DNA of 64,000 bases from Porphyridium purpureum (Eukaryota), in contig VRMN01000001.1 of the NCBI GenBank assembly GCA_008690995.1, positions 806,001-870,000 of the forward strand, read 5' to 3'. The notes beneath the pieces are model-generated. The model worked only from the letters and a program-made list of their open reading frames with translations. It did no database searches and was not told the DNA's origin. Each line of letters begins with the position of its first letter. Positions within the stretch are counted from its first letter, which is position 1. Shown in pieces: positions 1-27,417 of the stretch. The position numbers and the translations under genes were made by a program.

Positions 1-2940
1 GTCGGCATCAGCATAGCCCAAGACGCTTACGTCACCGACCTTCAATGACGTCATCCGCAAATACTCAAGTGGCTCACGAGGAACCTTCAAGTATTGCATG
101 ACGCGAACCAGGAGTCTCTCAGCTGCGACGTTCCAGCTATCCACATACCGAGCCACCACTCCAACTGCGTAGGAGATATCCGGTCTGACCGTCCTGGCCA
201 ACCACAGCAGCCTCCCAACATGCTCGCGTATTTTCAGATGCCCATGTTCGACTTGAACATCCAATACAGCGTCAGCATTCATCTTCTCGCCTGGTGACTT
301 CACTGCTCGCAGCACCTGCCCAAGCTCTTCTTCAAATTCCTTCACCACCAAGGTTTGGTAGTGATCATGATCCAACGAAAACCGTGTCGCCGACTCCGAG
401 ATCATGAGACCTAGGAACCTTAACGGGGCTCCTTCCGAGAGGACTTCTGGCTCCTTCTCAATGAGGAACTCTGACCTCAACTCTCGAAATATCTCACCCC
501 GATCCTTCTCGGCACACGCGAGCAGGCCATCGTCGACATACAAGGCCAAGAGTGCAACAGATGCACTTCCCGCCATCTTTTTCACGTATACGTTCTTCTC
601 GCCGTGAATCAAATCCCACCCGAACTTTTGAAGTCTTCTGCGGGCATCGATGGAAAAGTCAGACCCGCTTCTTGGTAAGCCATAAAGCGCCCTCCTTAAG
701 CGAACGACAAGTCCATCACCTCCTCCTGGAACGTGACGGGGCAACATGGCAAACGTCGGTGGTCCTGACAAGTCAGCGTGTAAGTACGCCGACGTCACAT
801 CGAACGACACGATTTTCAATCCCAGGATCGCGGCCAAAGCTATCAACATTCTGATTGCAGACAGGCCCGCGGGCACCTCATAGTCAAACACATCCTGAGT
901 GACCTTCCCTGAGGCATCCCAAATCCTATTTCCACCAGCAACAAGCCGACACTTGACCTTGCGAAACTCCTCCGGAAGCTCAGCGAACTTCAATCCGAAT
1001 ATAAAGTGTGTCCGCACAAATCGTGCGCCTGGGACCTTGAGAGCTTCTTCCCTTGAAATAGGTTGCTCATCCCATACCTTGAATCGAATCATCAAGTCCA
1101 CTTCTTTTTGCATGGCTTCTCTTCCAGCCGAAGAAGCCAGAGCTTGGCTCGTCTGCAACAAAGTTGTCAAGTTCAATTGCGGTGTTTCTGGAGCAACTCC
1201 TGCGCGTTGCTTCCAATTTTCCTCCGAGAGGCCCATATTATGGGCCCGGGCTCGCACATCCTTTCCGTTTCTTGAATTGCGGAACACTGCCTTGTATTCT
1301 TGCAGAGTTCTTTCCCACTTCCCCCAGCCAAAGAGCCGTAAGCCATCCATGATGGCCTGATCCTCTTCCCGGCTCCAAGCTACACTGGGTTTTCGTTTCC
1401 CCCTTCTTCCAATAGGTAGGGGAACGTCCTCCTCCAAGTTCCCGGACACACGCGCCTCGGCCGTATTCGTAGGCAACACCATAGTCTCTTGACTATCCGG
1501 TTCTTCCTGCCTAGAGTGAAAGTCGATTTCACCCTCACGTGCCGAGACCTCCTCGTCATCCTTTGTTTCCAAAGTCCGCATTGGAAACACTTCAGGGAAC
1601 GCCTTGAAGTCCTGAGTGCGAGTCAGCCTCGGTACCGCACTCGTCCACTCCTCCTGAGGAAGGACCCAGATTGCCAGCGGATGCTCCGCAACTCCAACAA
1701 GGACTCCAATCTTTCCTCTGGGTGCATACTTGTTCTCAGGTTGATCATTCTTGAACACCACCTTGCATCCAAATGGTACTGCTACCTTCCCCCGCTTCCA
1801 TCTCTCACCGTACCTCATTTCATACGGAGACTTCCCAGACCTCTTGTCTGGGTGCAGCCGATTGAACATGAAGACGAAATGCTGAGCGGCATGCAAAAAC
1901 CACCGCTTTCCCAGCCCAGACTGCAGGAGATTTGCTCGTACCCCCTGATTCAAAGTATGATGGAAACGTTCCTGTTCAGCGTGGCTATTTGGTCTATGTG
2001 GGACGCCAATCTCATGCTTCACGAGATTCTCCCGTACCAAATTGCTCACATTTCCCCTGAACTCGTTTCCATCATCTGTCCTCAGTACCTTTGGCCATCC
2101 TCGCCCGGCTTGCACGCTTGTCCAAGCTTCAGCAACCGCCGTATGCGTTTTGGCTCTCAATCCTGCCAGTGTGGCCCACCTCGTCGCTCTATCGATGTGC
2201 GTCAGTATGTACTTTGCTCCATCGGTGGCTTCCACGTTACGTCCGGGCTCCACCAGGTCGATCCCAACTTCGTCATTGAACGACAAAGTGGACAAGTCCT
2301 TCTCCAGCCTTCTTGCTGGTCGGCTCTTGATCTTGGCCACAACACACGTCTCACAATCATCCCGCATCGGCATGTGAGTCAACGCATGTTCCATCCCGGC
2401 CATCTTTCCTTCGACCTCTTCACTGGCACTCTCCTCTTCTCCATCGCACGCTTGATTTCCGCTTGACTCGGAAAGAGCGTCCACGACATTCACCATCGCA
2501 CAATCTTCCACATTTTTAAGTCCCAAGTCCATCGAACCCCTCTGCCAATCAATCCTCGGGTTCACGCGACTCAGCCAGTCCCACCCGAGAATTGCATCCA
2601 TTTGCAGAGGCCCGACATAAAACTTGACCGGCCCTTTCCAGAACCCAAGATCAACATGCTGCAACACCGGGCCATGCACTAAGACACTTTGCCCACCCGC
2701 AAGCTTGACCATTCCGTTCTCGCGCCCTTCAAATCTGCCGACAAAGCGAGATCCAAGAAAATTGTGCGATGCTCCGCTGTCCACCAGAAATTGGACAGAC
2801 TCGCCATCTAAAGTTCCACGCTTGTAGAGCAACCTCGACGCCGCATCAGCGCGCCAGACCTCACCTACAAAGCCCATCCCGGGAGGTTCCGTTCCCCTCG
2901 AGTGCACCTCCCAACTTCTCCCTCGAGGTTTTAGTTTTCC
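1..2940 (-). CDS. pol: Retrotransposon pol polyprotein (protease, integrase, Myb-like domain, RT, start of RNase H), partial; -1 frame relative to gag
   Basis: Manual translation, with all motifs in one frame: PR FLVDSGASHNF...DAILGWDWL; IN EHALTHMPMRDDCETC, GIDLV, LRTDDGNEF, AEQERFHHTL, PFGC; RT EAMQKEVDLM, KCRLVAGGN, FDVTSAYL, LKEALYGL, LYVDDGL (YVDD at 540-529); RNase H GYADAD at 18-1. The track lists no minus-strand ORF here, consistent with a frame that runs off the window. Confidence 0.92.
2879..2940 (-). promoter_or_regulatory. Putative -1 programmed ribosomal frameshift signal: G GAA AAC slippery site plus downstream pseudoknot
   Basis: mRNA reads GGAAAAC-UAAAA-CCUCGAG-GGAGAAGUU-GGGAGGU-GCA-CUCGAGG-GGAACGGA-ACCUCCC. 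Two interleaved 7-bp stems; pol is in the -1 frame. Confidence 0.8.
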
Positions 2941-3887
2941 GGGCCTCCCGCCAAGTGCCCATTCCGCTTTGGGCAATTGGGTTTGATGTGGCCGCGCTGC
3001 CCGCAATGGTAGCATCTGACTTTGCCCACGTCCGCATGCTTGCGCTTCTCCGGCTGGCGTTTCTCCACGACGCCCAAATCCATTGGCGCCGTCCCGGCAT
3101 ACGACGAGCTGTTCCGGTAGTTTGGACTAGAGGCGCCATGAAAAGCCTCCCTCATGTCTCCTCCAAACCTACCAACCTGCTCCGCAGCCAACGCCGCCCT
3201 CAGCGACTCTTCCAGCGTCTTCGTGTCCTGACGCGCCACCTCAAGGCGAAGCTTCTCCTTCAGGCCGAGAGTGAAGATGGTGTTGAGCTCGGCATCCGTC
3301 ACACTATCCACTGACAGGGCCACCATCCTCAGGCGCTGCTCAAACTCAGCAACAGTCATCTTGCCCTGCTTCAGCTGATACAAGTTCGTTCGAGCAGTCA
3401 GGTATGCCTGCGGCGGCTCAAATGCCGTCCGCACGAAGTTCGCGAACGCATTCCAACCGGACTCGGCCAGTGCCATCCTCTGTTCCTCAGGGCGAGCTGC
3501 CCACAACAGCGCGGCATCCTTCTCAAAGAAGCGCGACGCTACGATCACCTTCTGAGACTCCAGCGCTCCAGCTGGCATGCACATGTCCAAGTCTTGCTTC
3601 ATCCTCGACAACCACTCGTTCACAACGAGTTTGTCGCGCTGTCCGTCGTATTTCCTCAAGCTGCGTCCAATCAGCGATGCAACGGTCCTTTCCGTTTCGC
3701 CGGGACCAGCTGACACAGATGCCTGATGCATCACATTCTGCAGCATCTCCTGCAAGAGGCGATTTCCCTCCTGCAGCTGCACAATCATCATTTCTTGTCC
3801 TCCGATACGAGCATGAAGCTGATTGAAAGCTTCAATCCACGACGCGCCGCCCTGCAGGCCCTGCACGTCCATTCCCTCAGAATCCAT
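2931..3887 (-). CDS. gag: Retrotransposon gag (Ty3/gypsy-type capsid with CCHC zinc knuckle)
   Basis: WNAFANFVRTAFEPP...ARTNLYQLKQGKMTVAEFEQR capsid pattern, GTAPMDLG motif, and CYHCGQRGHIKPNC knuckle. Confidence 0.92.
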   Translation of the reverse strand: MDSEGMDVQGLQGGASWIEAFNQLHARIGGQEMMIVQLQEGNRLLQEMLQNVMHQASVSAGPGETERTVASLIGRSLRKYDGQRDKLVVNEWLSRMKQDLDMCMPAGALESQKVIVASRFFEKDAALLWAARPEEQRMALAESGWNAFANFVRTAFEPPQAYLTARTNLYQLKQGKMTVAEFEQRLRMVALSVDSVTDAELNTIFTLGLKEKLRLEVARQDTKTLEESLRAALAAEQVGRFGGDMREAFHGASSPNYRNSSSYAGTAPMDLGVVEKRQPEKRKHADVGKVRCYHCGQRGHIKPNCPKRNGHLAGGPEN

Positions 3888-3901
3888 CTTCGCCGATGCG
3901 A

Positions 3902-3909
3902 TGATACCA
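3902..3909 (-). promoter_or_regulatory. Putative primer binding site (initiator tRNA-Met type)
   Basis: TGGTATCA matches the first 8 nt of the plant-type iMet PBS TGGTATCAGAGC. It lies just upstream of the gag ATG (3887). Confidence 0.6.
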
Positions 3910-4705
3910 CTTTAAATTCTCGCACGCTTGATGATGACAAGCGCACGAGCTCGGATGACACAACCCTTCTCAGATGACCGAACCCCAGCAACACGACGCA
4001 CACGGCACAGAGAACACAACCACACGACGCACACAACACAGACGACGAATACCCGGGGCGTGGAAAATCCAACGTATAGGGCCTCTACTATTGCCTTTCG
4101 CGTCGGCACAGACAGCACCGGTCTCGACAGGGGCAGGGTGTCGTAACGGACAAAGCCGCCGTCTGCCTTCAGTGCTCCAAGAGCACCGAAACCCCCCAGA
4201 CACGATGTGCTGCTGGCTCTGCTACACAGGCTCAGCAAAAGGCCCCACGTCTTCCGACGACCACGCCCAGGCACCCGACACCAAAGAACAACTCTTCCTT
4301 TATTCTCTGTGTCGTACTCCCTTGCCTCTTCTTCTTCCGCTCTAAAGAAAATCCGGGGAACCGCACAGGCCCGCGCCCATTATATACCCCGCCGTCCTTG
4401 CTGTCCTTGACGCGGAAGGGAGAAATTATTTCTCCCAAAAGGCTGGGCTTTCCTCCGTTCGTTCCACGGAACGAAGCCACAGCCAGCCACGTCAGCAAGC
4501 GGCTCAATGGGTGCCGGCCGGCCGCCAAGCGGCTCCTGCTTCCCTCGGACACGCGACTCCGGCTCCTCGGGGCGAAAGACAACAATGCACAAAACCAGAG
4601 GTACAGGGTAAAAAACCACGCGGGCGAAAAAGCCCCTGTACCTCAAAGAATTCCGAGACGCCGTACCTCTAGGTGTACACCCAGGGCGTCTCTCGGACCG
4701 GAACA
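3910..4705 (-). repeat. Putative 5' LTR (~0.8 kb)
   Basis: Lies between the PBS-like site and a TGTT at 4705, and contains TATATAA at 4385-4379 (minus). The second LTR copy is not in the window, so boundaries are unverified. No canonical CA is seen next to the PBS. Confidence 0.5.
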
Positions 4706-4772
4706 CTTTTAATCCATGCGGAAACCGAATTTGGCAAAAGGGTATCGGAATCTGATGGACGTGCGTGGTGGA

Positions 4773-4808
4773 AGAGAGAGAGGGAGAAAAAGAGAGAGAG
4801 AGAGAGAG
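4773..4808 (+). repeat. (GA)n microsatellite upstream of the 4862 gene
   Basis: Interrupted AG run; (AG)9 at 4791-4808. Confidence 0.85.
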
Positions 4809-4861
4809 GGGGACGATCGCATGCGTGTGAGGTCAAGGTGGATGGATAGCGCAGTGGGAGC

Positions 4862-6358
4862 ATGAAGTCGTATACAAAGACGCTGCTGGAGCATTGCAGG
4901 AAGTACCTGACGCCGGTTGTGCTGGTGGTGGTGTTTGTGCTGTACCGGTTGTACGGCGCGCATCAGCAGGTGCGCCACGACGCGCGATGTTATGAGGAGT
5001 GGCACACGCGCTTCACGTTGGACGAGCTGCGCGAGTTTGAGACGCTCGAATGGACCGCGGAGCCGCTCCCTTCAGGGCTTGGTGGAAAGGGAAAGATGAA
5101 GGCGCAGCACGATGGAGGCGACGGCGTTCAGCCCGTTCGGAACCCGTTTGCGACATTGGCCGTGTGTGGCTTCCTCATGGTGGATAAGGCGTACGATCCG
5201 CAGGTGCTCTCGCAGATCAACGCGACCGTGCGGCCCTTGGTCGATGATCCGACCCGCTTTGAGCCGCTCAAAAACACCGCCGGGCTCCGCGGCAAGCGGG
5301 TCGAGTTCAGCGTGCCTCATGAAGCGCCGTTCCTGCAAGCCATTCCGCCACAGCCCGTGATGGACTTTGTGCGCGATTTCGTGTCTGTGTTGGGTGACGG
5401 CCGCGCACTTCGCCAGAAGGAAACCACCGATCCGGAGATGTTTGCCGCTAAATACGACGCTGGTCGCTTTCCGGCGCTCGAGCAATTGACGGTGATTCTG
5501 GCAGAGGCACGCGAGGACACGGATCAGGGCTTACACCCGGATGCTAGCTTCAGATACGGCATGAAAATCCACGTGCCTCTGGTGGACGTGACCGAAGAAA
5601 TGGGACCCGTGCGCATCTACCCGCAATGTCTTGATGACGCGGACGGCGTATTCAATCGCCTCTACGATTGGTACTCATCGCTTTTGAATGTGAGGCCCTC
5701 AGTGCTGGGTACTGTGCCAGTTGGCACAGCGGTCATTTACCAACAGTTTCTTCTTCATCAGGGAACGGGGAACAAGAGCCCGCTGGACCGACCCATTTTG
5801 GATTTCAGCCTGCTCCCCGCACATTACATCAGGGAGCACAACTACACCAAGGAGTTTCCGCAGGATATTTTGCCGCACCTGAAGAAATATCGCCAGGATT
5901 GGCACGCGCGTTTAGTGAATGGCCTGGCTGACCCCAGTGGCCGCCACAAGAAGTTGTTTGAGAGCCTGGTCTCTCGCGACTACTCAATTCGCCCAGAGGA
6001 TCAAAAGCCTCATGCCTGGATTGACGCAGGAAAGCGCAAGAGTTTTTGTGGCCAGAACGTAGACTTGGTGTCGTGCCTCAATCAAACGATCTTAACGCCA
6101 AAGATCATTGCCCTAATCTGCGGTTTCCTATTGATCACAGCAGTTCGTTCGGCGCAGCGCGACTGGGAAGAGGCGTTCACGAAGGAGAAGCGCGCAGCCG
6201 CCGCGGCTGCAACGGCGCCTGCGTTGACCAAGAAGAAAACCAAAGTGAAGAAGACAGCCACGAATGACTCGGTAAAAGGTGTCGTGGCGGGCAAAGGCGG
6301 AGGGCCGCTGGAGGCGGTGGATGATACAGTTTCGGAAGATCAGAAAAAGGCACAGTAA
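4862..6358 (+). CDS. PhyH-like 2OG-Fe(II) dioxygenase with N- and C-terminal hydrophobic segments
   Basis: QGLHPDA (HxD), IHVPLVDVTEEMGP, and HQGTGNKSPLDRPIL (H-x-G-xx-N-x-S-xxx-R) are PhyH-family hallmarks. Confidence 0.75.
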   Translation: MKSYTKTLLEHCRKYLTPVVLVVVFVLYRLYGAHQQVRHDARCYEEWHTRFTLDELREFETLEWTAEPLPSGLGGKGKMKAQHDGGDGVQPVRNPFATLAVCGFLMVDKAYDPQVLSQINATVRPLVDDPTRFEPLKNTAGLRGKRVEFSVPHEAPFLQAIPPQPVMDFVRDFVSVLGDGRALRQKETTDPEMFAAKYDAGRFPALEQLTVILAEAREDTDQGLHPDASFRYGMKIHVPLVDVTEEMGPVRIYPQCLDDADGVFNRLYDWYSSLLNVRPSVLGTVPVGTAVIYQQFLLHQGTGNKSPLDRPILDFSLLPAHYIREHNYTKEFPQDILPHLKKYRQDWHARLVNGLADPSGRHKKLFESLVSRDYSIRPEDQKPHAWIDAGKRKSFCGQNVDLVSCLNQTILTPKIIALICGFLLITAVRSAQRDWEEAFTKEKRAAAAAATAPALTKKKTKVKKTATNDSVKGVVAGKGGGPLEAVDDTVSEDQKKAQ

Positions 6359-6505: not shown

Positions 6506-9334
6506 CTACAACTGCTTGATACCTTTCCCAAGGACAGCCGTGTTTCCCGGATAGGTCAAAGTGATCTGCAAGTCTCCAAGCGTTCGCGTCGCAAAGCCTG
6601 CCTCACAATAACGGAAATAATACTCCCACTTGCGGATAAAATCGTCGTCAAAGCGACCGCCCTCGAGCGCCTTGATGTGGTCTTTGTTCTTCATGAATCG
6701 AGCACACCACTCGTCCAGCGTGCGCGCGTAGTGAATACCGATGTTTTCAACGTGCTCAACCGTGAGCTCTGGCGCGCTACGATTTAGCGCCTCCACCATG
6801 GCCGCAAAGCTTGGACAGCAGCAACCGGGGAATATGTGCTTAGAAATGAAGTCTGCGCTGGTCCGGTAAGCATCGTACCGCACCTCCGGTGTCGTAATAA
6901 CTTGAATCACCGCCACACCAACGCGCGGCTTGAGCAAGCGCTGCACGTTTCCGAAAAACTCACCCAAAAATTCGTGGCCCACGGCCTCAAGCATTTCCAC
7001 CGACACGATTCGGTCAAACGTCTCACCATGCAGTAGGCGATAATCGCACAAGCGCAAGTCAATCAAATGGCTTAGTCCTGCCACTTCGATCCTCTTGTTG
7101 GCCAACTCGAGCTGTTCCACAGAGAGTGTGACGCCTGTCACGCGGCAGCGAAACCGCTCTGCGGCACGAATCGCCAGCGTGCCCCAGCCGCAGCCAATCT
7201 CCAGCAAGTGCATCTCAGAATTTAGACAAAGTTTGTCAAGAATCATGTCCACCTTGCGGTACTGCGCTACATCTAGCTCATCGCTCGTGAGACCAGTACT
7301 GTCTGCTTCAAACAGGGCGCAGGAGTACGTCCATGAGTCTCCCAGAAACATTGAGAATAGGTCATTCGACAAGTCATAGTGAGCAGCAATATTCTTGCGG
7401 GAACCAGACACGGTGTTTCGTTTCCACAAGAGGTGAACCAAGCTGTTGACAAGGGATCCAACCACTGATAGAAACGGGCTCTTCGCGGTACCAGCGCTTG
7501 CGTGCTGATCACGATTGGAAATAAGCAACTCAAAGAGATGCGTCAATTGCCGAGAACCTCCCACAACCTCGAAATCGCCGTAGATATACGCCTCTGCGAG
7601 GCCGATATCTGCAGAAGTCAAAATTCGAACGTAGAAGTCCAGTGGTCGCACGATTCGTAAAATGACGTGCCGTGCGGCGTCTGGATCCTCGCTTTCGAGT
7701 TGAGCGAGCGGCTGGCCACATGAAAAGCTGCAGTCCTCTTCAACAATCGTGAGCCGTCCCACAAAAATGAAAGAGCGCATAAAGGAGCGCACTGAGGATC
7801 GGCAGAAGCGCAACAGAGAAGACCCGCTGGACATTCTATCACGAACATCAGCGCTTGCGTCACATACAAGCTTTCTCACCACTTTGTCTTGCTCTCGATT
7901 ATACTCATAGCCAGTGTCCCACGGAACGGACACACCACAAATTTGCTGTGCCACTGAGAGTCCAGAAATTAGCCCGTCCTCATGGAAGCCGTATCGCGTG
8001 TAAGCGCCACAGTAGTAGACGCCATGCTCGCCCTGAGCGTCAAGCAAAGCTTTCTGTGCGCGAACCGCCGCTACAGTGTACTGCGGGTGGTCGTACTCGA
8101 GCTCCATGAGAACTTTGCTTGCATCAATGGGCCGGATAGGGTTTAGCGTCTCCAGCACATTCATCGTATCAGCGGGAAGATTCTGCAGTCGGTTATTCCA
8201 GTAGGTTACACATATATTGGACTCCAGATTCCCCTCATGAAGGACATTCCAGGACGACCACGCGTGACGCTTCACGGGCAGGAACGATTGATCGGTGTGG
8301 ATCACAATTTTGTTTCTCGAGACCTGGAACGCGGCTAGTGCCCCTCTGGCGCGCGTGAATTCCTTGTGCGTCGCTAGGAGTGAGAGCGCAGTCGGCGCGT
8401 GCGTGGCAACGACAACCCGGTCAAATGTCAGCTCTCTCGTGCCGGCAGGAGGTAGACCATTCGAGTCCAAAGCGTTAGATGCCGCAAGCTTCACGCAAAT
8501 GGAGGTATCGCCAGCACCAGAAGGGGCAATACCCACCACTCGAGTCGAGAGAAGAATTTCTGCTTGGGCCTTGTCAAGCTCCTGACCGACCCGGTCTACG
8601 TAAGCACGTGAGCGGTTCGTGACAGTTCGCCACTGTGGCCTGCCAAAGATTTGCGCAAAGCGATGGTTGTGGAAAAACCGGAACAGCGTGACAACGGGAA
8701 AGTCTGCCGCTATGCTGTATGAGCACGACCACACGGCAGCAATGGTTGGTAGCAAATACCACTCGATAAAGGGCTTTGAGTATCTACCACGCACGAGAAA
8801 TTCACGGAGCGTCGGCACCTCGTCCATGCTGAGCCGACCGGTGTCAAACAAACGAAGCACGCGCACGACCTGTCGATTGAATCGAAGCATATCGAACAGC
8901 ATGAGATAAAATGACGGACGGAACAGATTCTTCCACTGCACCAAAAGGCCTTGGAGTCCTCTCGAGCTCCATTCCATTATCCTGCGGTCAGCCAGGTCAC
9001 CGCTGCGCACCGACACCGACAATGACATTTCTGACGCTTCTGTCTCGACGCCTAGGCGCGCAAACCACTGCACCAGATTGGGATACGTCAGTTCATTATA
9101 TACAATGAATCCTGTATCAACAGGCACCGCCGCACCCCCAGGCAACCCGACTTGCATGCTCTGTGTATTAGCGTGCCCGCCAAGCCTTGCGGCCCGCTCG
9201 ATCAAAGTCACTTGCGCTCCTCCATGCACTTGCAGGTGCCACGCCGCGGCCAAACCGGAAACCCCGCTCCCGATCACCGCCACGCGCAGCTTTCTTCCCA
9301 CCACGGGCCCGGCGGCTGCCTGATCCGTGCCCAT
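6506..9334 (-). CDS. Fusion of an FAD-dependent oxidoreductase (amine oxidase-like) and a cyclopropane-fatty-acyl-phospholipid synthase-like SAM methyltransferase
   Basis: N-terminal VAVIGSGVSGLAAAW, RLGGHA, VDTGFIVYN, GFHEDGL. C-terminal NIAAHYDLSNDLF, LLEIGCGWG, SVEMLEAVG, WEYYFRYCEAGF. Confidence 0.92.
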   Translation of the reverse strand: MGTDQAAAGPVVGRKLRVAVIGSGVSGLAAAWHLQVHGGAQVTLIERAARLGGHANTQSMQVGLPGGAAVPVDTGFIVYNELTYPNLVQWFARLGVETEASEMSLSVSVRSGDLADRRIMEWSSRGLQGLLVQWKNLFRPSFYLMLFDMLRFNRQVVRVLRLFDTGRLSMDEVPTLREFLVRGRYSKPFIEWYLLPTIAAVWSCSYSIAADFPVVTLFRFFHNHRFAQIFGRPQWRTVTNRSRAYVDRVGQELDKAQAEILLSTRVVGIAPSGAGDTSICVKLAASNALDSNGLPPAGTRELTFDRVVVATHAPTALSLLATHKEFTRARGALAAFQVSRNKIVIHTDQSFLPVKRHAWSSWNVLHEGNLESNICVTYWNNRLQNLPADTMNVLETLNPIRPIDASKVLMELEYDHPQYTVAAVRAQKALLDAQGEHGVYYCGAYTRYGFHEDGLISGLSVAQQICGVSVPWDTGYEYNREQDKVVRKLVCDASADVRDRMSSGSSLLRFCRSSVRSFMRSFIFVGRLTIVEEDCSFSCGQPLAQLESEDPDAARHVILRIVRPLDFYVRILTSADIGLAEAYIYGDFEVVGGSRQLTHLFELLISNRDQHASAGTAKSPFLSVVGSLVNSLVHLLWKRNTVSGSRKNIAAHYDLSNDLFSMFLGDSWTYSCALFEADSTGLTSDELDVAQYRKVDMILDKLCLNSEMHLLEIGCGWGTLAIRAAERFRCRVTGVTLSVEQLELANKRIEVAGLSHLIDLRLCDYRLLHGETFDRIVSVEMLEAVGHEFLGEFFGNVQRLLKPRVGVAVIQVITTPEVRYDAYRTSADFISKHIFPGCCCPSFAAMVEALNRSAPELTVEHVENIGIHYARTLDEWCARFMKNKDHIKALEGGRFDDDFIRKWEYYFRYCEAGFATRTLGDLQITLTYPGNTAVLGKGIKQL

Positions 9335-25218: not shown

Positions 25219-27417
25219 TTAGGACAACAGTTTCGCAAACTCCTTGATCTGATCTGGACCACGCACTTCGAGTGGCAACAGTGGCACCCGCGTAACGTGA
25301 AAATCTGAGCCCGGATACAATTCGTCCACTTGGTGCAAATACTTGGCCTGCATCTTTGCGCGCGTCTCAAGCAATGGGATTTTGTCTTCTGTTTTTCTCG
25401 CGACCATCAATTGATTTACAACAACGTTGCGAATATCCAGATCCAGCTCGGCAAGCTGCTGGATCAGGCGCTCAGTTTCATAAACCGACAGCAGTTCGGC
25501 GATGGATACTGCCACGAAGGTGCATCTATCCGGATCGCTTAGCTGGCGGCTAACATCTTCCACCGTGGACTTGAGCTCGCGGATCTTAGAACTGGCAAAA
25601 TCAATAGACGCAGCACCGTTCTGGCCCGGGGGCGCACCTCCCATCGACCCGGCCATCATGGCTATCATCGGACCCATAGGCTCCATAGCGGCGCGCAGAC
25701 TCTCCAGCTTGTCTAGTGCCTGTTCGAGCAGGGCCGGGAACTGCAATAATCGAAGCGTATGTCCAGTCGGCGCAGTATCAAAGACAATCTTCGCGAATTC
25801 CATGTCTGCCACCAACTGCAGCATATGAGCAAACGCAATGGCTTCGTCAATGCCCGGAACAGAAGATGCAATTTCACGCACCGTGTCCTCACCGACGAGC
25901 TGGGGCGGGAGCACCTGGGCCATCAGCATGGCAGCCGACTCCCCGGCTTCGATTTCGAGGGCGTACAGTCGGTCCAGGCCAGACAATTTTTTGGGCGTCG
26001 CACCCACTGCGATTTCTTCCGCAAAGGCGTCCGATAGGTTGTGCGCGGGATCTGTTGAGATAATCAGCACCTTGCCCTGCGTTTCCTCCAGCTGATCGTG
26101 CAGAGCAACCGCCAGGCTGCAACTGGTCGTGGTCTTGCCAACTCCGCCCTTGCCACCAACAAAAATCCACCGCAGTGACTCTTGCTCGACAAGGTTATGC
26201 AGCGATGGCTCGAACATGATGTCATCTGGAGACGGCACATTCGTGCCGCCGGTCATCAGGCAGGTACCAAACTCGCGTAAGCTCGTAATCCCACGCACCT
26301 CGTTGTCAAAAATGGGCACCTGCGTCACGTGAAAGTCTTCGCCATACAATTCGAGCAACTGCGAGACGTACTTCTGCTGTATAGCAACGCGGGCGTCACA
26401 CAGCGCCATGAGCTGCAGATCACGCTGCCGCGCGTCGTTCGCTGTGCGGGAGGCTACGAGCTCCATCGACTCGCCCAGGATCTGATTCAGCACGATGTTC
26501 TTCACATCAATACCGAGCTTGCCGAGCTGCCGAATCATGCGCTCCGTTTCAAAAACAGAGAGATACTCTGGAATTGCCACGGCCACAAAAGTGGTCTTCT
26601 GCGGATCGCGAAACTGGCCCACAACTTCGTCCACAAGCGCGGAGATCTCATTCAGCCGTGATGCGAGCGTTTCCTGCATACTTGGTATCCCCGACGCTCC
26701 GCCTGCACCTCCACCAGCAAGCGCCGAAAGAGACGACATCATCGGTCCGTACTGGTCGTGCAGACTGCGCAGCTTTCTGACAGCCTTCTGAAGAAGCGAC
26801 GGGAAAGCGAGTAGGCGTAACGTGTGGCCAGTAGGTGCAGTGTCGAACAAAAAGCGCTCAAAGTCCATCTTGAGCACACTCTGCATAAGGCCGGCAAAGG
26901 CCAACGCCTCGTCTATGCCAGGCACCATGTCCAGTAACTGGTTCATCATAGACACGGCGCCCTGGTCGCCTGCACCGAGCAGCTGCTGCAGCTCTGGGGG
27001 CAAGATTGCCATCATCTGCTGCCTCTGAGTGTCCGACACGTCTGACCATGTGGAAGCAGTCATACTAGACGCCGCGCCGCCATTTGCGTTGCCATTCATG
27101 AGCCCTGCAGCCGCGCTACGAGTCCCGGCGCGATCAATCTCCACCTCCATAGCACTCAGGCCCGGTACACCTGCCACCGGCGTAGGTGTTGTGCCCATGC
27201 GCTGCGCAAATGCGTCAGACACATTGTGTGCAGGGTCGGTGGAGATCAACAACGTCTTGCGCCCCTTTGAAACTGCGAGGGCATATGCCAGCGAGCACGA
27301 CGTCGTCGTCTTGCCGACCCCGCCCTTCCCTCCGACGAAAATCCACCGTAGCGTTTCCTTGTTCAGAATATTCTCAAGCGTCGCGGCACGCATTGCGCCG
27401 TCTATGGGTGACCCCAT
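25219..27417 (-). CDS. GET3: Tandem (two-domain) GET3/ArsA-family ATPase
   Basis: Two copies each of WIFVGGKGGVGKTTTSCSLA, ISTDPAHN, PGIDEA, FDTAPTGHTLRLL. Confidence 0.93.
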   Translation of the reverse strand: MGSPIDGAMRAATLENILNKETLRWIFVGGKGGVGKTTTSCSLAYALAVSKGRKTLLISTDPAHNVSDAFAQRMGTTPTPVAGVPGLSAMEVEIDRAGTRSAAAGLMNGNANGGAASSMTASTWSDVSDTQRQQMMAILPPELQQLLGAGDQGAVSMMNQLLDMVPGIDEALAFAGLMQSVLKMDFERFLFDTAPTGHTLRLLAFPSLLQKAVRKLRSLHDQYGPMMSSLSALAGGGAGGASGIPSMQETLASRLNEISALVDEVVGQFRDPQKTTFVAVAIPEYLSVFETERMIRQLGKLGIDVKNIVLNQILGESMELVASRTANDARQRDLQLMALCDARVAIQQKYVSQLLELYGEDFHVTQVPIFDNEVRGITSLREFGTCLMTGGTNVPSPDDIMFEPSLHNLVEQESLRWIFVGGKGGVGKTTTSCSLAVALHDQLEETQGKVLIISTDPAHNLSDAFAEEIAVGATPKKLSGLDRLYALEIEAGESAAMLMAQVLPPQLVGEDTVREIASSVPGIDEAIAFAHMLQLVADMEFAKIVFDTAPTGHTLRLLQFPALLEQALDKLESLRAAMEPMGPMIAMMAGSMGGAPPGQNGAASIDFASSKIRELKSTVEDVSRQLSDPDRCTFVAVSIAELLSVYETERLIQQLAELDLDIRNVVVNQLMVARKTEDKIPLLETRAKMQAKYLHQVDELYPGSDFHVTRVPLLPLEVRGPDQIKEFAKLLS

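Follow-up and report, generated by a model that had tools for sequence, protein, structure and literature searches.

Among long terminal repeat (LTR) retrotransposons, chromodomains and the Ty5 domain that contacts Sir4 have been described as targeting domains carried by the integrase (PMC12477314, PMC5537684; here and below, papers are cited for those of their sections that bear on the point at issue), and the targeting modules described for LTR elements read chromatin marks or host proteins. DNA recognition by a Myb domain has been described for non-LTR elements: targeting is Myb-guided in R2 and TRAS, and a Myb domain is also present in R4/Dong (PMC13586686, PMC7998251, PMC5537684). The stretch analysed here, called the window, comprises 64,000 nucleotides of Porphyridium purpureum (contig VRMN01000001.1, positions 806,001 to 870,000, forward strand), and its left end holds part of an LTR retrotransposon of this organism that is young, present in many copies and of copia order; its pol open reading frame (ORF) is 98% identical to a named P. 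purpureum protein. Between the integrase and the reverse transcriptase (RT) of this element lies an in-frame, 61-codon Myb/SANT domain (window:1228-1410:-). Such a Myb-bearing Pol of an LTR element is real, conserved and apparently undescribed; as an earlier note on this DNA had supposed, no LTR family with an integrase-Myb fusion was found among the papers listed in literature searches (Repbase, GyDB, REXdb and subscription journals lay outside the search).

1228..1410, minus strand: Myb/SANT domain with a basic N-terminal arm (PF00249, PDB profile matches, AlphaFold2, VIA).

The peptide that the earlier note read as a Myb repeat is the exact translation of 1410-1228 on the minus strand, inside a single stop-free pol frame of 1042 codons which runs off the left end of the window (3126 to <1, minus strand). 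Pfam matches follow one another along pol as gypsy-type aspartyl protease, integrase core, SH3-like region, Myb_DNA-binding and copia-type RVT_2. PF00249 scored 28.9 bits (E 1.2e-6) with the isolated peptide, above its curated cut-off of 24.4, and 22.6 bits with the whole pol ORF, under the cut-off; 8 of the 9 aligned members matched at E <= 1, and an NCBIfam scan of the peptide gave no match. The top match in the ESM Atlas was a Myb cluster (0.92), with which 10 of the 10 best family matches concurred. The best of five AlphaFold2 models, built from the nine-row alignment, had three predicted helices (18-31, 36-42 and 53-62; mean pLDDT 76.5, vs. 52-55 in the remaining four). VIA structure comparison placed the TRF1 DNA-binding domain first (Z 7.8, rmsd 1.4, 51 residues), Foldseek also ranked the TRF1 family first at values that were not significant (E >= 0.43), and the top rows of both were Myb domains (VIA Z <= 7.8). 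A single-sequence fold of integrase plus Myb reached a pLDDT of 35. The Trp residues encoded at 1377-1375 and 1317-1315 are invariant (9 of 9 carrier rows); the third Trp position (1245-1243) is Ala in the window and Ala in 7 of 9 rows, like Tbf1. No second Myb was found in the window. The Myb/SANT identity and the three-helix helix-turn-helix fold of 1410-1228 are confirmed at the level of profile searches and predicted structure.

Relatives were collected from a search of 1.8 billion representatives (best 150 of 8651 matches), and eight further carriers of a Myb in the same slot were found among them, all of them P. purpureum proteins: P0080, P0083, P0084, P0087, P0092, P0110, P0111 and P0176, of which P0084 and P0092 fit the seed profile least well (E 0.03-0.05). 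Identity to the window across these eight families was 29-47% for the Myb core, 36-41% for RT and 29-37% for integrase, and seven of the eight Myb pair scores were above all 1000 shuffles, the eighth above 999. The Myb core is as conserved as RT, so it is under constraint of the kind seen for an enzyme domain, and the homologues at this position in eight further families show that we are not dealing with a single, isolated capture. P0131 (E 0.03-0.09) was left out of the carriers, since E values of 0.2-0.4 were reached by reversed controls. Run against 194 relatives, the Myb profile gave no pass beyond the nine carrier families (self-hits by construction) and no carrier from another organism. 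A search for a host donor gene, with the isolated Myb and the nine-row profile against longer proteins, gave only P. purpureum Pol proteins, which is a weak negative. In the ESM Atlas (clusters >=50) no cluster joined Myb and RT (best 0.79); relatives numbered zero among viral contigs and zero among prokaryote genomes; the LTR-end pattern had zero matches in metagenomes, from which three short RT fragments with little upstream sequence and no Myb match were obtained.

The Myb is missing from at least five P. purpureum families that belong to the same RT clade as the carriers (P0004, P0081, P0086, P0095 and P0112). The nearest is the P0004 sister family, with 70% identity in RT, 73% in integrase, and 16+2 members. 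Its slot holds a coiled-coil-like heptad stretch instead of Myb, and this stretch hardly varies among all those listed members whose sequence extends to the linker. The LTR of this family may be represented by contigs that are 88% alike over window 4067-4286.

The window's own family has 17+3 cluster members, 18 of which were listed, and 14 of these span the linker between integrase and RT. The Myb is whole, with three substitutions at most, in 12 of the 14 (one being the window's own sequence), so the earlier expectation that other copies keep it held; one cluster member is identical to the window in all eight segments compared. The other four listed members are fragments, one beginning within Myb and one, P0057, ending exactly at the Myb start. 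The accession of P0057 neighbours that of a sister-family protein on the same contig, and it is possibly a nested insertion. The remaining two of the 14 protein models omit 56 Myb residues, and this, together with a sister family that does without Myb, could be taken to mean that the domain is a piece of host sequence captured and carried along passively, or an artefact of the gene models or of the assembly. The skipped 168-nt stretch is bounded by GT...AG and none of the joints listed skips it, so it is probably a predicted intron. Passenger and artefact are largely refuted and hardly credible: the frame is open in the DNA, the region is covered by contigs from four of four runs, and conservation is at the level of RT across nine families, with invariant core residues and linker lengths that vary widely.

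The earlier note had assigned the domain to the TRF type, and one part of this assignment received support: TRF1 and Tbf1 appear, by small margins, to be the nearest solved relatives. With the nine-row profile the best single-domain match in the PDB was Tbf1 of Schizosaccharomyces pombe, at 33 bits compared with about 20 for c-Myb repeats, and VIA gave Z values of 7.8-6.0 for TRF/Tbf1 rows vs. 5.6 for others. The register was taken from the Tbf1 alignment and the VIA ranges, which set model residues 12-65 on TRF1 379-429. TRF1 contacts phosphates through W383, R415 and R423 (PMC2377444), and the equivalent positions are W in 9/9 rows, R/K in 9/9 and R/K in 9/9; the partner of the E387-R415 bridge is E in 7/9. 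The part that did not stand is telobox membership. The base readers of TRF1 helix 3 are K421, D422 and R425 (PMC2377444, PMC8867601), their equivalents in the window are R-A-H, and the triad is complete in none of the nine rows. An alternative ungapped register matches K and D and leaves R425 as Ala, the core Leu and Trp becoming Gly and Arg, so that the triad is replaced in either register. Helix 3 (R-x-G-K-x-x-R-x-R-x-H-N) matches repeat 2 of B-Myb/c-Myb at 7 of these positions, and it is as close to B-Myb repeat 2 as to the TRF/Tbf1 domains. The domain is best described as a predicted TRF-type scaffold and is not filed as a telobox.

A true telobox would send the element to telomeric repeats, at chromosome ends or interstitial, in the manner of the TRAS Myb. 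In favour of this, TRF1 and S. pombe Tbf1 are the best matches in both sequence and structure, and Tbf1 shares the third Trp-to-Ala change and R-N...A-R/H-N-M; but we regard it as very improbable in view of the incomplete triad and of the surroundings of the copies. The 15 listed copies are spread over 11 contigs. Flanks could be read for seven among the rows listed (six single-contig 30-nt flanks of other copies plus the window's own; six merged rows were unreadable), and none of the seven holds TTAGGG or any telomeric or tandem repeat; TTAGGG is also absent from the element and from its surroundings out to 1.3 kb. The host telomere repeat may differ, human-type and Cyanidioschyzon-type probes having given no signal (PMC3622300, in the section cited). 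The window is gene-dense, and 143 bp separate its copy from the start of a gene:

4719..4861, no strand: insertion flank of 143 bp containing a GA tract, upstream of a divergent host ORF whose ATG is at 4862.

The seven flanks argue against the telomere targeting suggested earlier and are far too few to show any other bias.

The reading we favour, at about even odds, is that the Myb would be a DNA-binding tail of the integrase and would favour insertion into open, intergenic or promoter DNA, not into telomeric repeats. It is supported by the basic charge of most of the domains, the kept fold and phosphate-contact residues, the retention of the domain across copies and families, the position before the RT leader, the 143 bp to the start codon, and the targeting by integrase-borne or Myb domains described for other elements. 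The parts of the element on which the proposed mechanism draws are as follows.

3910..4718, minus strand: 5' LTR of 809 bp, starting CATGG and ending TTTAAAG on this strand (not TG...CA); contigs of other copies diverge right after 4718 and right before 3910.
3898..3909, minus strand: primer-binding site (PBS) TGGTATCATCGC, adjoining the LTR directly (sequence).
2931..3887, minus strand: gag ORF with a Ty3/gypsy-type capsid and one CCHC knuckle (PF03732 E 1.2e-10, PF19259 E 2.3e-8, PF00098 E 7.6e-5).
2934..2940, minus strand: G GAA AAC, the probable slip site of a -1 frameshift, a little ahead of the gag stop (from the reading frames).
2566..2817, minus strand: aspartyl protease of gypsy/retroviral type (PF13975, PF13650 E 2.5e-5).
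1567..2388, minus strand: integrase with a short H-x3-H-x-P-x4-C-x2-C zinc motif, catalytic core and SH3-like region (rve E 1.6e-4, SH3_retrovirus E 0.029).
1411..1566, minus strand: acidic linker, where relatives have a Cys/His module that is absent from the window's family (linker comparison).
1153..1173, minus strand: hydrophobic motif LNLTTLL, which precedes RT throughout the clade and is the likely cleavage region between integrase and RT (linker alignment, pattern).
1..1152, minus strand: RT of divergent copia type and the start of RNase H, where the element leaves the window (RVT_2 E 3.6e-16).

Pol sits in the -1 frame relative to gag, and Gag-Pol would be made by a -1 frameshift; no stable hairpin was found downstream of the site (z +0.61). 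The order of Myb then RT was as the earlier note had described it; the RT lead-in is LNLTTLL, which starts 18 residues past Myb and about 20 residues ahead of EAMQKEV, where that note had placed the start of RT. The leader pattern was detected after Myb in 8 of the 9 carriers, and in all eight the Myb precedes it, which puts the module on the integrase side as had been claimed. The protease would cut at this hydrophobic leader, leaving integrase, linker and Myb together, so that the Myb likely remains on the integrase after cleavage. In that place it would contact the target DNA and shift insertion to open stretches between genes, which would be advantageous where the genome is compact. The P. 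purpureum genome has 22 Mb with 8% recently expanded LTR DNA, the part of the main text cited giving no family descriptions (PMC6811547). In a bolder form, put forward tentatively, the Myb would be a self-encoded, sequence-reading homing device on the integrase: a captured TRF/Tbf1-like Myb with a rewired recognition helix, kept through a swap of Gag, protease and integrase, from which basic forms that read DNA and acidic forms that read chromatin have since arisen.

Several points weigh against a DNA-binding tail. Both DNA binding and the insertion bias are predictions from sequence, as is the cut site at the leader. No shared motif is evident in the seven readable 30-nt flanks, and intergenic survivors are to be expected anyway in a gene-dense genome, in which selection alone would act in this way. 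The Myb is not needed for transposition, since the sister family multiplied without it. Two of the nine domains are acidic (net charge -6, pI 4.5-4.6), both on a canonical copia chassis, and are unlike DNA binders; a TRF-like Myb with its triad replaced, that of TERB1, can lose DNA binding altogether (PMC8867601). The last two points also favour an alternative in which a SANT-like contact with a protein or histone tail anchors the integration complex on a chromatin factor of the host, much as Sir4 serves the Ty5 integrase; SANT domains of CoREST, Ada2 and others appear among the VIA matches (Z 4.5-5.6), and a histone-reader-type zf-CW finger occupies the same slot of P0123 (E 9e-4, below cut-off). 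We consider such a tether unlikely, because the domains of the window and of six other families are strongly basic (net charge +3 to +7, pI 9.7-11.7, with the short-zinc-motif chassis where visible), have basic arms and keep the phosphate-contact residues, and because the top structural rows are the DNA-binding TRF/Tbf1 domains.

The ends of the element are atypical. LTRs usually end in TG...CA; on the element strand these end in CA...AG, and independent flanks diverge precisely there. A purine tract (PPT) lies ahead of the 3' LTR, PBS and PPT adjoin the LTR ends, the pol stop codon is inside the 3' LTR, and both joined 3' ends would be G. P0005 shows the full end of the element, and so do contigs in which 4719 is joined to 1. 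The PBS is presumably of the initiator-Met type; no tRNA genes were found in the 64-kb window. Poly(A) loose ends in run X1, which we guess to be RNA, at 4282 (LTR) and 3531 (gag) suggest a short, prematurely ended transcript. At 4626 several runs join one foreign sequence to the outer ~90 LTR bases, which points to a truncated, nested or non-autonomous derivative.

The design is chimeric: Ty3-type Gag, gypsy-like protease and -1 frame pol, followed by integrase and RT in copia order. Gag and protease matched Retrotrans_gag/Ty3_capsid and gag-asp_proteas, not Retrotran_gag_2/Pol_BBD, and the integrase core matched IS481-like DDE enzymes (E 4e-14). Two carrier families (P0233/P0110 and P0235/P0092) have canonical copia Gag, protease and integrase, with P0233 and P0235 showing the copia types of Gag and protease. 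In an RT tree of 164 rows (16 of 180 matches were dropped as too short) a 53-row divergent clade stood apart from canonical copia with support 100, and the Myb carriers with usable RT were all in one 19-row subclade, on three branches. In trees of 28 rows, ten rows including six carriers formed one side of the RT tree with a support of only 24; the same ten rows as a clade in the integrase tree were rejected (p-AU 2e-76), and the direction of the swap was left unfixed by the RT data (p-AU 0.36). Either the Myb follows the RT lineage across two different blocks of Gag, protease and integrase, or it has been exchanged between co-resident families.

Other modules were seen in the same slot. A Cys/His module (C-x2-C...C-x2-C...H...C-x4-C-x-C) is present in the linkers of P0081, P0082, P0084-P0086, P0088-P0091 and others, with no Pfam match in the proteins scanned. 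Two CxxC motifs precede RT in 29 of the 53 divergent-clade rows vs. 0 of the 111 others, so the module looks ancestral in the slot and lost in the window's family; P0084 carries both it and Myb. The zf-CW finger of P0123, a distant relative, spans residues 333-362, and in another distant relative, P0006, an AAA_28 NTPase domain (residues 1213-1375) is fused after RNase H. The slot between integrase and RT may be regarded as a swappable module bay, with Cys/His in most of the clade, Myb added in Porphyridium, a coiled-coil-like stretch in the sister family and zf-CW in one distant relative.

A Myb that follows the RT lineage over two integrase types, in an element with atypical LTR ends, might serve the element itself, by binding its own cDNA ends, LTR or RNA, by helping RT, or by nuclear import through the basic arm, whose GRRGKRKP resembles an import signal. 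We give this only a small chance. An import signal needs no folded Myb core; the helix-3 signature, common to families 36-41% alike in RT, would need a common LTR motif (the LTRs of the other families being unseen); and the sister family without Myb probably shares part of the LTR.

Elsewhere in the window, the 942-aa ORF at 6506-9334 (minus strand) presumably encodes an FAD oxidoreductase fused to a methyltransferase of the cyclopropane fatty-acid synthase type, and 25219-27417 (minus strand) what we take, from its motifs, to be a tandem two-domain ArsA/GET3-like ATPase.

Compared with Ty1/copia, the element shares the order of protease, integrase, RT and RNase H, an RVT_2-type RT, LTRs, PBS and PPT, and differs in its Ty3-type Gag, gypsy-like protease, -1 frame pol, short zinc motif and CA...AG LTR ends. 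Named algal copia clades are CoDi and GalEa/PyRE10G/CoPorcru (PMC2806351, PMC3587641); a PyRE10G-type identity was unsupported, PyRE10G being described as GalEa-like in the passages cited (PMC3587641). Like chromoviruses and Ty5, the element has an accessory module at the integrase C-terminus which is proposed to steer insertion; in Porphyridium this module is a Myb/SANT domain inside Pol before RT (copia order), and its targeting role is a proposal. No chromodomain was matched by Pfam in the element at E <= 1, and integrase precedes RT, which is not the chromovirus order. PIF/Harbinger transposons also encode a SANT/Myb-like protein beside a DDE enzyme (PMC8616336), but as a separate ORF of a DNA transposon, according to the description cited, and not as a Pol fusion. 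With TRF1/TRF2 and Tbf1 (PDB 1w0t, 1ity, 8ynu, 8x6d) the Porphyridium Myb has in common the fold, the sequence of helices 1-2, the backbone contacts and the third-Trp Ala of Tbf1; it lacks the base-reading K-D-x-x-R, and its helix 3 is like that of B-Myb/c-Myb repeat 2. R2, R4/Dong and TRAS likewise fuse a single Myb to the transposition protein, and the Myb of R2 binds target DNA (in the accounts cited above), but these elements use target-primed reverse transcription at one fixed site, whereas the Porphyridium element has LTRs, a DDE integrase and dispersed, dissimilar flanks.

One genome offers a built-in comparison: nine families with Myb and at least five without, including a 70%-identical sister of similar copy number. 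The flanks of Myb and Myb-less families could show whether the choice of target shifts when the integrase carries a DNA-binding domain; such a domain may be a natural way to aim an integrase. If the proposed role is true, a DDE integrase that bears a Myb would combine the strategy of the integrase-borne modules of LTR elements with that of the Myb-guided non-LTR elements, in an LTR element which chooses its target DNA directly, with no borrowed host factor.

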